Assembly: GCF_056712565.1 (NCBI RefSeq)
Contig: NZ_CM160072.1
Strand: one strand, 5' to 3'
Length of the DNA stretch: 64,000 bases
The position numbers and the translations under genes were made by a program. Shown one piece after another: positions 4,123 to 8,477 of the stretch. Within the stretch, counting starts at the first letter, position 1; the number at the start of each line of letters is the position of its first letter. Below the pieces are notes generated by a model. It did not search any database, was not told where the DNA came from, and saw only the letters and a program-made list of their open reading frames with translations.

Positions 4123-4668
4123 TCACGTCAGTGCTCCGGTTTCATCAGGGTCTGCGCACCGGATGTGGCCGGTCAGGGTCATGGGCTGAGCGGTGAGTGA
4201 TTGCATCATCCAGCAGGCTTTGTGCTCCTCCGGGATGGGATAAGGTGCCGGATAGCCTTTGTCTCCGGCACAGGGTTCGAACCCATGTCGGGGGTAATAG
4301 GTGGCGTGGCCGAGAACAAAAACCGTCTGGCAGCCCATCAACCTCAGGTGCTCGATGCCAGTGCGTATCAACCGTCCTCCCACGCCCATCCCTTGGTATT
4401 CCGGTATGAAAGCCAGGGGAGCGAGGATGTGCATCAACGGTGAATCCATTTCTCCTTTGAAGGTTGCCCGGGTAAATAAAATATGCCCGACGGCTTTGCC
4501 TTCATACCGGGCTAGCAGCGATAACGCGGGGCGCGCGCTTTCATCCTCAAGTAAAGAGGCCACTAAATCGGCTTCTTTGCCGAAGCCAAATGCGCGGGTT
4601 TCGACTTCCCGGATATCACTGGCATCACTTTTATCTGTGATATGAAAAGTGAAGTGGTGTACTGTCAT
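4123..4668 (-). CDS. yjhQ: GNAT acetyltransferase YjhQ (putative TopAI antitoxin)
   Basis: 181-aa ORF with GNAT-like core (QGMGVGGRLIRTGIEHL); immediately downstream of topAI. Confidence 0.8.
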   Translation of the reverse strand: MTVHHFTFHITDKSDASDIREVETRAFGFGKEADLVASLLEDESARPALSLLARYEGKAVGHILFTRATFKGEMDSPLMHILAPLAFIPEYQGMGVGGRLIRTGIEHLRLMGCQTVFVLGHATYYPRHGFEPCAGDKGYPAPYPIPEEHKACWMMQSLTAQPMTLTGHIRCADPDETGALT

Positions 4669-5897: not shown

Positions 5898-6914
5898 ATG
5901 GGATATTTACATATTGATGGTAGAGGCATGAAGCCAAATGGAGGGAGCCGTCATAACCCTCTTGAAGCTGAAACAATAGCAGCATGGCTGGTGGCACATA
6001 AGGATGATATAGAGCGCCATTACGGGGAACCACTGTACAAAGTTGTTGGTGTTGTGACGCCATTTTCGGCGCAGGTTAATGCTATCAAAATGTCATTGCG
6101 TAAGCTGGAAATTAATGGCAAAGACGAGCAGGGTTTACTGACAGTGGGGACTGTGCACTCCTTGCAGGGGGCGGAAAGGGCGATTGTTCTCTTTTCTCCT
6201 GTCTACTCAAAACATGAAGATGGCAGGTTTCTTGATAGCAACAGCACTATCCTCAATGTTGCTGTCTCACGCGCTAAAGATAGTTTTCTGGTATTTGGCG
6301 ATATGGACCTTATCGAGATGCAGCCCGCATTTTCGCCGCGAGGGTTATTGGCAAAATATCTCTTTTCTTCAGATAATAATGCGTTGCAATTTGAGTTTCA
6401 GAAACGACAGGATTTAATTTCCGCACATACACAAATTTCAACGCTGCATGGTGTGGAGCAGCATGATGAATTTTTGAACAAGACTCTTGCCGGAGCTCAA
6501 AAGAAAATAACGATTATTTCCCCTTGGTTATCCTGGCAAAAAGTGGAGCAAACGGGATTTCTGGCATCAATGGCTTTGGCCCGTTCCCGGGGCATTGATA
6601 TTACCGTGGTGACGGATAAAAACTGCAATATAGCGCATGTCGATGATGATAAGCGTCAGGAGAAACAACATCTGCTGAATGATGCTGTTGAAAAGCTCAA
6701 TAAGATGGGTATCGCTACGAAATTGGTTAATCGTGTTCACAGCAAAATTGTGATTGAGGATGAAGAACTGCTGTGTGTCGGATCTTTTAACTGGTTCAGT
6801 GCTACACGGGAAGATAAGTATCAACGATACGATACGTCTTTGGTGTACCGTGGTGAAGGCGTAAAAAATGAAATAAAGGCAATATATGGTAGTCTGGATC
6901 AACGTCAGCTTTAA
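5898..6914 (+). CDS. yjhR: YjhR-like protein: C-terminal SF1 helicase motifs fused to a PLD-like domain; likely remnant of a larger gene
   Basis: 338-aa ORF with helicase C-terminal motifs ([22 protein letters not shown]) followed by a PLD-like region ([24 protein letters not shown]); upstream 5722-5931 frame has further helicase-like sequence in another frame. Confidence 0.6.
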
Positions 6915-7496
6915 ATGTGATGAGCCGTTCATGATACAGGAGTAGTAAAGGGCATATTTTACCAATGTTAAGGCGACTTTCCGTTTTATTGTGAGTCGCC
7001 TTTCCTGATTATAAATCTTATTGTTTACCTAATCATTTTCCTTTGCATAATGCGCCTGGGATTAATGGCGGGTGCTTTTAGGAATGAAAGAAAATGCAAG
7101 CAATAATATAATAATGGCCTAATTTCTTTGAACATCATTAAGCATATCATCATCGTCTATTTGCCAGAATCCGTCGACTTATAATCGCCAGAACGGCATA
7201 TCAGGACGGTGCTGCGAACGCTGTGGCCCAAAACGTTCCAGTAAACTGTGTAGATGTTCGTAGATTTCCGAGCCATAATCGAAAAGGCGCGGATGTCTAT
7301 TAAGGCATCCGGCTAATCTGTAAGCAATAACAACGGTTTATGCGGTGCGCGTTTTTCACCCTTGTGCCAGATTATTATATTGGCAATTGCCTGCTGTTCG
7401 AGCCCGCAAGTGAAGAGATATTACCTTGATCTCATTTGTTTTTTGTTGTCTACTCTGAGAACGAACAAGGACATCCCCCATGAATAAACTCCCCGC

Positions 7497-8477
7497 TCAC
7501 CTTTCGCGCCAAAACTGCAAAATTGCTTCTACAAATCTGTCAGAAATAATCCCCCGACGGGCTGCAGTGCTGAAATGACTGCTTCGCAGTGCCGTCGTCC
7601 AGTTCTCCGGTGACCGGTACGCTGAACCGTAATATCCCGTGCTTAAATCGTCCGGGTCTTCATCAGGCGCGTTCGTCAGTCCTCTTTCACCTTGTTGCTG
7701 GAAGTCGACGAAAATAATATTGGCTAAAACATTATTTTGATAATTGCCATAAATAGCTTCATACGAATGCGGGAAATTTTCTTTCCAGTACCAGGTGGTA
7801 TCGCCGCAAAACCACGGCGCGTCAGTAATATTATTAAGCTGAGAATGGTATTGTTTTAGATCCCTACGAAAGGCTTCAACCATATGATTAAAGTGTTGAG
7901 GGTGTGACGCGTAGTCACTGGTCATTAAGTCAAATTCGCCTTGCATCCAGCATGCGCCGAGGAATTTGTTCTGCGGATTTTTTGCCAGTGCGGCTCGCGT
8001 TCTGCTGACTAAATCCTGGTACAGCGGAGTATCCGTTCCCCAACGACAAGCATCATGGCTGGCTCCGTGCCGTTCTGAATATGTCCCTTCGCTGCCCGCG
8101 GTAAAAGCCGATCCGCCACGGCAACACGGAACGATAAGAATCCCTGCATTATCAGGAATGAAGGGCAGTAATTTCCGTGCAATATGCAGTGCCTGGCCAA
8201 CGGTGCCGTACTGTGTTTGATGATTCGTTGCCAGAGGATGGTGATAACCCTGCATATCCTGAACATCGTGTGGGCAGTGAGTCAGTGGAATAATGTCGTT
8301 AAAGTGACATGGCGGGCCTCCGGGATGCGTATGCGCAAATCTCGCTAATTGTTTAATTCTGGGATGAGGCGCATCTTCCCTGTCCGGTAATGGCAGTCCT
8401 TCGCCATACGCCATGGCATTAGACTGACCAGCAACGGTAAGAACATAGTAATAATCGGGCGATATTATTGCGTTCAT
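7497..8477 (-). CDS. nanS: N-acetyl-9-O-acetylneuraminate esterase NanS (YjhS)
   Basis: ORF 7497-8504; start set at MNAIISPDYYYVLTVAGQSNAMAYG to give 326 aa; downstream of nanM/nanC. Confidence 0.8.
   Translation of the reverse strand: MNAIISPDYYYVLTVAGQSNAMAYGEGLPLPDREDAPHPRIKQLARFAHTHPGGPPCHFNDIIPLTHCPHDVQDMQGYHHPLATNHQTQYGTVGQALHIARKLLPFIPDNAGILIVPCCRGGSAFTAGSEGTYSERHGASHDACRWGTDTPLYQDLVSRTRAALAKNPQNKFLGACWMQGEFDLMTSDYASHPQHFNHMVEAFRRDLKQYHSQLNNITDAPWFCGDTTWYWKENFPHSYEAIYGNYQNNVLANIIFVDFQQQGERGLTNAPDEDPDDLSTGYYGSAYRSPENWTTALRSSHFSTAARRGIISDRFVEAILQFWRER

Follow-up and report, generated by a model that had tools for sequence, protein, structure and literature searches.

The spacer between yjhR and nanS in Escherichia coli very probably holds a dead fragment of an EcoWI-family restriction endonuclease gene

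In a 64,000-nucleotide stretch of Escherichia coli DNA (contig NZ_CM160072.1 of assembly GCF_056712565.1; hereafter the window), the minus strand of the spacer between yjhR and nanS carries what is very probably a dead piece of a restriction endonuclease gene (type IV / IIM) from the EcoWI family, whose members join a sulfur-binding domain (SBD) to an HNH domain. The fragment codes for the N-terminal half of the SBD only. It is an ordinary pseudogene, already known to automated annotation, and nothing we met contradicts the pseudogene reading. The coordinates of the fragment, its lesions and its neighbors are listed in Table 1.

The region around the site is E. coli chromosome, 99.90% identical to K-12 MG1655 across 10 kb. 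As originally predicted, the spacer is bounded by convergent genes, the decayed helicase gene yjhR on the plus strand and nanS on the minus strand; it is also flanked by the small gene ythB. Translated on the minus strand, window positions 7179–7499 read ...TVVIAYRLAGCLNRHPRLFDYGSEIYEHLHSLLERFGPQRSQHRPDMPFWRL, which includes exactly the 36-residue peptide that had drawn attention to the site. This peptide is encoded at 7182–7289 and followed by a TAA stop. The interval first given for it, 7190–7310, was about 10–20 nt off, while the object it pointed to was the right one. Read from 7337 to 7182, the frame runs through 52 codons without a stop, and its sole methionine lies six codons ahead of the TAA. 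In the list of open reading frames, none of at least 25 aa beginning with ATG, GTG or TTG falls in this frame, and a start codon with a ribosome-binding site, as a small protein gene (sORF) would have, is absent. With the exact peptide and its stop recovered and no usable start found, the description of a protein-like tail lacking an upstream start proved accurate.

Other kinds of element were also sought in the spacer. An Rfam scan of 6800–7650 at E-values up to 1 returned zero matches to known RNA elements, and a terminator scan of the spacer predicted no intrinsic terminator for nanS or for the remnant. The sole hairpin in the spacer, at 6970–7002, is a perfect 9-bp inverted repeat (AAGGCGACT / AGTCGCCTT) with a 15-nt loop; it begins 56 nt 3′ of the yjhR stop codon and may be the terminator of that decayed gene. 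A literature search returned no paper naming yjhR together with nanS.

The 52-aa peptide matched a single NCBIfam model, NF045808 (E = 8.7e-13, profile positions 26–74 of 284). This model, ‘phosphorothioated DNA-binding restriction endonuclease’, represents the SBD-HNH enzyme family of EcoWI. Immediately before this peptide, in the neighboring frame, a second one (YLFTCGLEQQAIANIIIWHKGEKRAPHKPLLLLTD) matched positions 4–28 of the same profile (E = 2.8e-8). Joined with the frameshift corrected, the two peptides (85 aa) matched positions 4–74 with E = 3e-24. This E-value marks the fragment as a homolog, and its score of 85.6 bits lies below the 180 bits that the model uses as the cutoff for complete members. 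Since the match is confined to positions 4–74, the fragment is the N-terminal quarter of the gene and not, as had been proposed, its C-terminus. A Pfam scan of the remnant peptides returned nothing, and NCBIfam alone recognized them. The database proteins that matched the fragment (P0001–P0070) were all short, 50–146 aa, and each carried the precomputed family PF26340.1, which was absent from our local Pfam scan output for both the fragment and the intact protein. The proposal that the sequence is the relic of a lost gene had been made dependent on finding homologous coding sequence in relatives. Such sequence was found as the profile match, the database proteins and intact genes at the syntenic site, and the protein-database matches extended to Klebsiella, Salmonella, Enterobacter and Xenorhabdus.

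Automated annotation agrees. In a strain whose spacer is 100% identical to that of the window, PGAP calls a pseudogene at the equivalent of 7182–7387 (‘frameshifted; incomplete; missing C-terminus’), and it makes the same call in strains Nord58 and U13A and the corresponding one in thousands of E. coli assemblies. Another K-12 MG1655 assembly (NZ_CP010445.1) carries the PGAP pseudogene, whereas the curated MG1655 record (NC_000913.3, 4536032–4536596) has no pseudogene feature there. In this the remnant differs from yjhR, yjhZ and yjhY, at the right-hand end of the variable region that K-12 has between leuX and nanS. Those pseudogenes are likewise truncated mobile or defence remnants within the same few kilobases, but they are annotated in the MG1655 reference record.

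Table 1. Features in and around the yjhR-nanS spacer, in window coordinates.
Feature	Position	Strand	Description	Basis
yjhR	5898–6914	+	pseudogene, decayed helicase gene; flanks the spacer	
3′ breakpoint	7148–7151		restriction-gene homology ends, at about codon 89	alignments, megablast limits
Pseudogene remnant	7151–7397	-	codons 8 to about 89 of a 290-codon SBD-HNH gene	profile match, PGAP, alignments, megablast
Premature stop	7179–7181	-	TAA; CAA (Gln80) in intact alleles	codon-by-codon comparison
1-bp deletion	7322/7323	-	frame shifts between codons 32 and 33	intact TTGCTATAC vs window TTGCT-TAC
73-bp deletion junction	7397/7398 (7393–7398)	-	between ACAGC direct repeats (ACAGCAG in VL46)	alignments
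Relic divergent intergenic (promoter) region	7398–7479		82 bp, now upstream of ythB	85–88% identity to L003/L004 4309–4428
ythB	7480–7578	+	32 codons; flanks the spacer	
Head-HNH deletion junction	7495/7496 (7494–7497)		about 641 bp lost, CG microhomology	sequence comparison
nanS	7497–8477	-	flanks the spacer, convergent with yjhR	

An intact 873-bp gene is present in the same orientation and the same place beside nanS in E. coli strains ET761, VL46 and LY180, the last of which belongs to the E. coli W lineage and has the gene at 4732656–4733528. The remnant shares about 90% DNA identity with the intact genes at this syntenic site, and megablast homology to their loci begins at 7151. The intact 290-aa product scored 437.6 bits against NF045808, well above the cutoff for complete members, and contains the Pfam domain HNH_2 at residues 182–236; its residues 5–142 are homologous to the SBD of ScoMcrA (PDB 5ZMO, E = 6.6e-8). 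The product of the LY180 allele has a computed mass of 33.31 kDa. We presume that EcoWI was named for E. coli W, and the name together with the match in mass (33.31 against a published 33.4 kDa, in a paper that gives no accession) indicates that the LY180 allele is probably EcoWI itself.

EcoWI is a dimer of 33.4-kDa subunits that cleaves GpsAAC/GpsTTC DNA at N7/N6; in vivo it keeps dnd+ plasmids from transforming cells, and T7 Express, which is without EcoWI, accepts such plasmids (PMC7461809). T7 Express has the K-12-type yjhR flank. By analogy, the N-terminal SBD of the intact 290-aa enzyme would recognize phosphorothioate-modified DNA and the C-terminal HNH domain would cut nearby, and the enzyme would destroy incoming DNA that carries Dnd-type sulfur modification. 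The ancestral product of the window gene presumably had an EcoWI-like activity of this kind. The intact alleles at the locus are full-length members of the SBD-HNH family, and the window fragment aligns to their N-terminal SBD. The window copy differs from them in having no start codon or HNH domain and in carrying both a frameshift and a nonsense codon, which makes it a pseudogene.

Alignment with the intact alleles and a walk along the codons revealed four lesions in the window copy. A 73-bp microhomology deletion took the Shine-Dalgarno region, the ATG, codons 1–7 and 55 bp of upstream DNA. A 1-bp deletion shifts the frame, in agreement with the two translated frames each matching adjoining parts of the NF045808 profile. 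Codon 80 has become a stop. Past about 7151 the remaining ~600 bp, coding for the remainder of the SBD and for the entire HNH domain, have been replaced by the flank downstream of yjhR, and homology to the HNH-coding part is accordingly absent. Given these lesions, which leave no uninterrupted open reading frame with a start and a ribosome-binding site, we infer that no protein is made and that the copy has no enzymatic function. As a gene, the fragment is probably an inert relic that is not expressed, and the protein-like tail would be the still-recognizable coding for SBD residues 33–79.

The DNA removed by the 73-bp deletion includes an 18-bp palindrome, TTGCGAGCATGATCGCAA. In VL46 it lies at positions 4292–4309 of the locus (L003), between the two divergent restriction genes of the intact locus, where it could serve as an operator or form a bidirectional hairpin. 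A short direct repeat within the window, 7158–7169 / 7182–7193, corresponds to the restriction gene's own FW(R/Q)L duplication. We also considered other explanations for the 3′ breakpoint. An att site of a leuX-integrated island was rejected, as a short-word BLAST comparing leuX and flanking sequence with 6801–7600 gave only chance matches of 8–12 nt. Strain ET670, tried as another possible setting of the breakpoint flank, turned out to hold this same remnant, with an IS1 close by.

All four lesions are common to K-12, Nord58 and U13A in the alignment, and they therefore predate the divergence of these lineages. Between the remnant and ET761, pS was 0.215 and pN 0.068, for a pN/pS of 0.32, a ratio that carries little statistical weight at 82 codons. 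Between the intact genes of ET761 and VL46, the same 90-codon span shows three synonymous changes and no others (pN = 0). The pS value implies that the parent allele had diverged beforehand from the intact alleles that we examined, with part of the difference older than the inactivation, and the pattern as a whole agrees with constraint having relaxed on an allele that had diverged earlier.

The restriction gene was not the only one lost beside nanS. In VL46 a 216-aa HNH endonuclease gene (L003:4405–5055) stands between the restriction gene and nanS, divergent from the former and convergent with the latter. At the C-terminus, its product matches the HNH domain found in E. coli McrA (PDB 6GHC), and its N-terminal part gives the gene the name head-HNH used here. 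Population counts were made over 5426 complete E. coli genomes, and head-HNH is intact in 1239 of them. SBD-HNH and the divergent head-HNH form a two-gene cassette that divides the architecture of ScoMcrA over two proteins.

In the window, head-HNH has been reduced to ATGAATAAACTCCCCG joined to CTCACCTTTCGC..., and its ATG is the start codon of ythB. The junction reads ...CTCCCCG/CTCACC..., against ...CTCCCCG/ATCATC... at the 5′ side and ...TGAACG/CTCACC... at the 3′ side in VL46. Comparison with VL46, ET761 and IAI1 showed that the lost 216-aa gene supplied the ATG and the first five codons (MNKLP) of ythB. Strains with the intact HNH gene have a 29-codon open reading frame (MNAHLSRQNCKIAS...), labeled a hypothetical protein by PGAP, whose ATG overlaps the HNH stop (TAATG) and which runs antisense to the 3′ end of nanS. 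The K-12 protein (MNKLP-AHLSRQNCKIAS...) is thus a fusion, in which five HNH codons and the HNH upstream region were placed onto a pre-existing open reading frame. Both epitope tagging (10.1101/511675) and mass spectrometry (PMC12529367) have revealed YthB, and a published list of convergent excludons includes ythB-nanS (PMC12288877), from which it follows that a promoter within or close to the relic is active.

Could the remnant itself supply that promoter? Within 7300–7520, the sole sigma-70-like match facing ythB is TTTTCA-17-TATATT at 7353–7381 (+), inside the remnant and on the strand opposite to the old gene, so the fragment DNA may not be wholly inert. The same scan found no such site in the intact VL46 locus, which has TGTTCA at the first hexamer, and the 73-bp deletion brought the site nearer to ythB. 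One could accordingly propose that the wreck of the two-gene cassette was recycled: YthB would have taken its start and upstream region from head-HNH, and the 5′ part of the remnant would contain the ythB promoter, or part of the ythB 5′ region, kept as regulatory DNA for the ythB-nanS pair. The production of YthB in K-12 and the excludon listing speak for this idea. Against it, the 7353–7381 site is a 9-of-12 consensus match, which is no evidence of function; the true promoter could instead be in the 82-bp relic inherited from the HNH gene; and the persistence of the arrangement in about 1700 genomes is equally explained by common descent. We therefore consider such co-option unlikely and retain the dead restriction gene as our reading of the fragment.

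A second alternative is that the truncated gene still yields a sulfur-binding peptide that works on its own, perhaps as a decoy or a regulator. In ScoMcrA of Streptomyces coelicolor (PDB 5ZMM/5ZMO) the sulfur pocket is formed by H116/R117, the arginine being lysine in most homologs, and Y164/P165, and a Y164M change strengthened binding (PMC6224610). H116/R117 align with the H-K of ‘APHKP’ and Y164/P165 with the M-P of ‘DMPFW’. The remnant contains both pocket motifs, with their codons still readable, and owes its protein-like look to them. The frameshift, however, separates the two motifs and the nonsense codon follows them; the start and ribosome-binding site are deleted, no open reading frame with a start codon exists in the frame, and about 82 of the ~140 residues of a complete SBD are left, cut near residue 89. 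A working peptide is thus very unlikely.

The likeness to ScoMcrA goes beyond the homologous SBD fold and the conserved pocket motifs (H-R/K and Y/M-P), as the lost neighboring gene matches the N-terminal ‘head’ domain of ScoMcrA (residues 29–93, E = 8.7e-5). The organization differs: ScoMcrA is one 561-aa protein of head, SBD, SRA and HNH domains, whereas in E. coli the head and the SBD are found in two divergent genes, each with its own HNH domain and neither with an SRA domain. An E. coli SBD homolog tested in the ScoMcrA study (PMC6224610) has its critical proline at position 482; it is a larger protein, distinct from the one discussed here.

The original prediction was that the fragment is the C-terminal end of a gene lost from the end of the nan (sialic acid) operon nanCMS. 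It does lie downstream of nanS on the same strand, and its frame has a stop and no start. The stop is nevertheless no gene end: the TAA after WRL is a nonsense mutation at codon 80, and homology runs on for about 30 nt past it. The sequence matches the N-terminal quarter of the profile, NF045808 is its sole family match, and the intact homolog is an SBD-HNH restriction endonuclease, not a sialic-acid gene, which in intact strains is parted from nanS by the oppositely oriented HNH gene. A former nan gene is extremely improbable. That the frame arose by chance in AT-rich intergenic DNA can be set aside almost entirely: an open run of 52 codons is unremarkable by itself (roughly estimated at ~0.08 per frame as (61/64)^52), but the E-values against a curated profile, already 8.7e-13 for the 52-aa peptide alone, and the identity to syntenic intact genes lift it above chance.

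To follow the restriction gene through the species, we turned to the same 5426 complete genomes. Some piece of the gene is present in 4870 of them, and 1707 hold at least 80% of it; the gene is intact in ~31%, about a third. The K-12-type spacer is found in 1728 genomes. The yjhR-side flank occurs in 1739, with at least 99% identity in 1724, and this near-identity points to a single origin of the junction. The K-12 type keeps nt 21–268 of the gene, and other strains retain other stumps, nt 1–161 in IAI1 and nt 449–873 in M217; the differing stumps indicate that the gene was destroyed independently several times, in at least three ways.

Strains also differ in the DNA that borders the gene on its far side. 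ET761 has a SIR2-family gene together with a P4 psu remnant and IS1, VL46 a cytosine methyltransferase, IAI1 DUF262/DUF3696 genes and LY180 McrBC-family genes. Such strain-variable cargo marks a hotspot for defence genes beside nanS and not an extension of the nan operon, and the window fragment is one occupant of this variable spot, whose contents depend on the strain. Two further observations concern this neighborhood. FDAARGOS_946 (L005:5417–10282) carries the restriction gene a second time, as an intact copy of 283 aa elsewhere in its chromosome, inside an integrase-bearing island where it adjoins a nanM fragment and a type II Zorya system (zorA2B2E); apparently a segment from beside nan was moved there. 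In many strains PGAP labels nanS a truncated pseudogene (‘missing C-terminus’), yet its DNA there is full-length and 97–98% identical to the intact nanS of the window, so that point lesions in nanS appear to be common.

These findings matter mainly for keeping annotation in order: PGAP calls a pseudogene that is missing from the curated MG1655 record. They also show the site next to nanS to be a polymorphic defence hotspot. Laboratory strains derived from K-12 and B tolerate plasmids with phosphorothioate modification (dnd+), and the relic, in which the chromosomal EcoWI-type gene is dead, fits this known tolerance. The origin of ythB is mildly new, a small case of an expressed small-protein gene built from the leftovers of a deleted gene; slightly new besides is the possibility that the stump of the restriction gene holds a candidate promoter for ythB.
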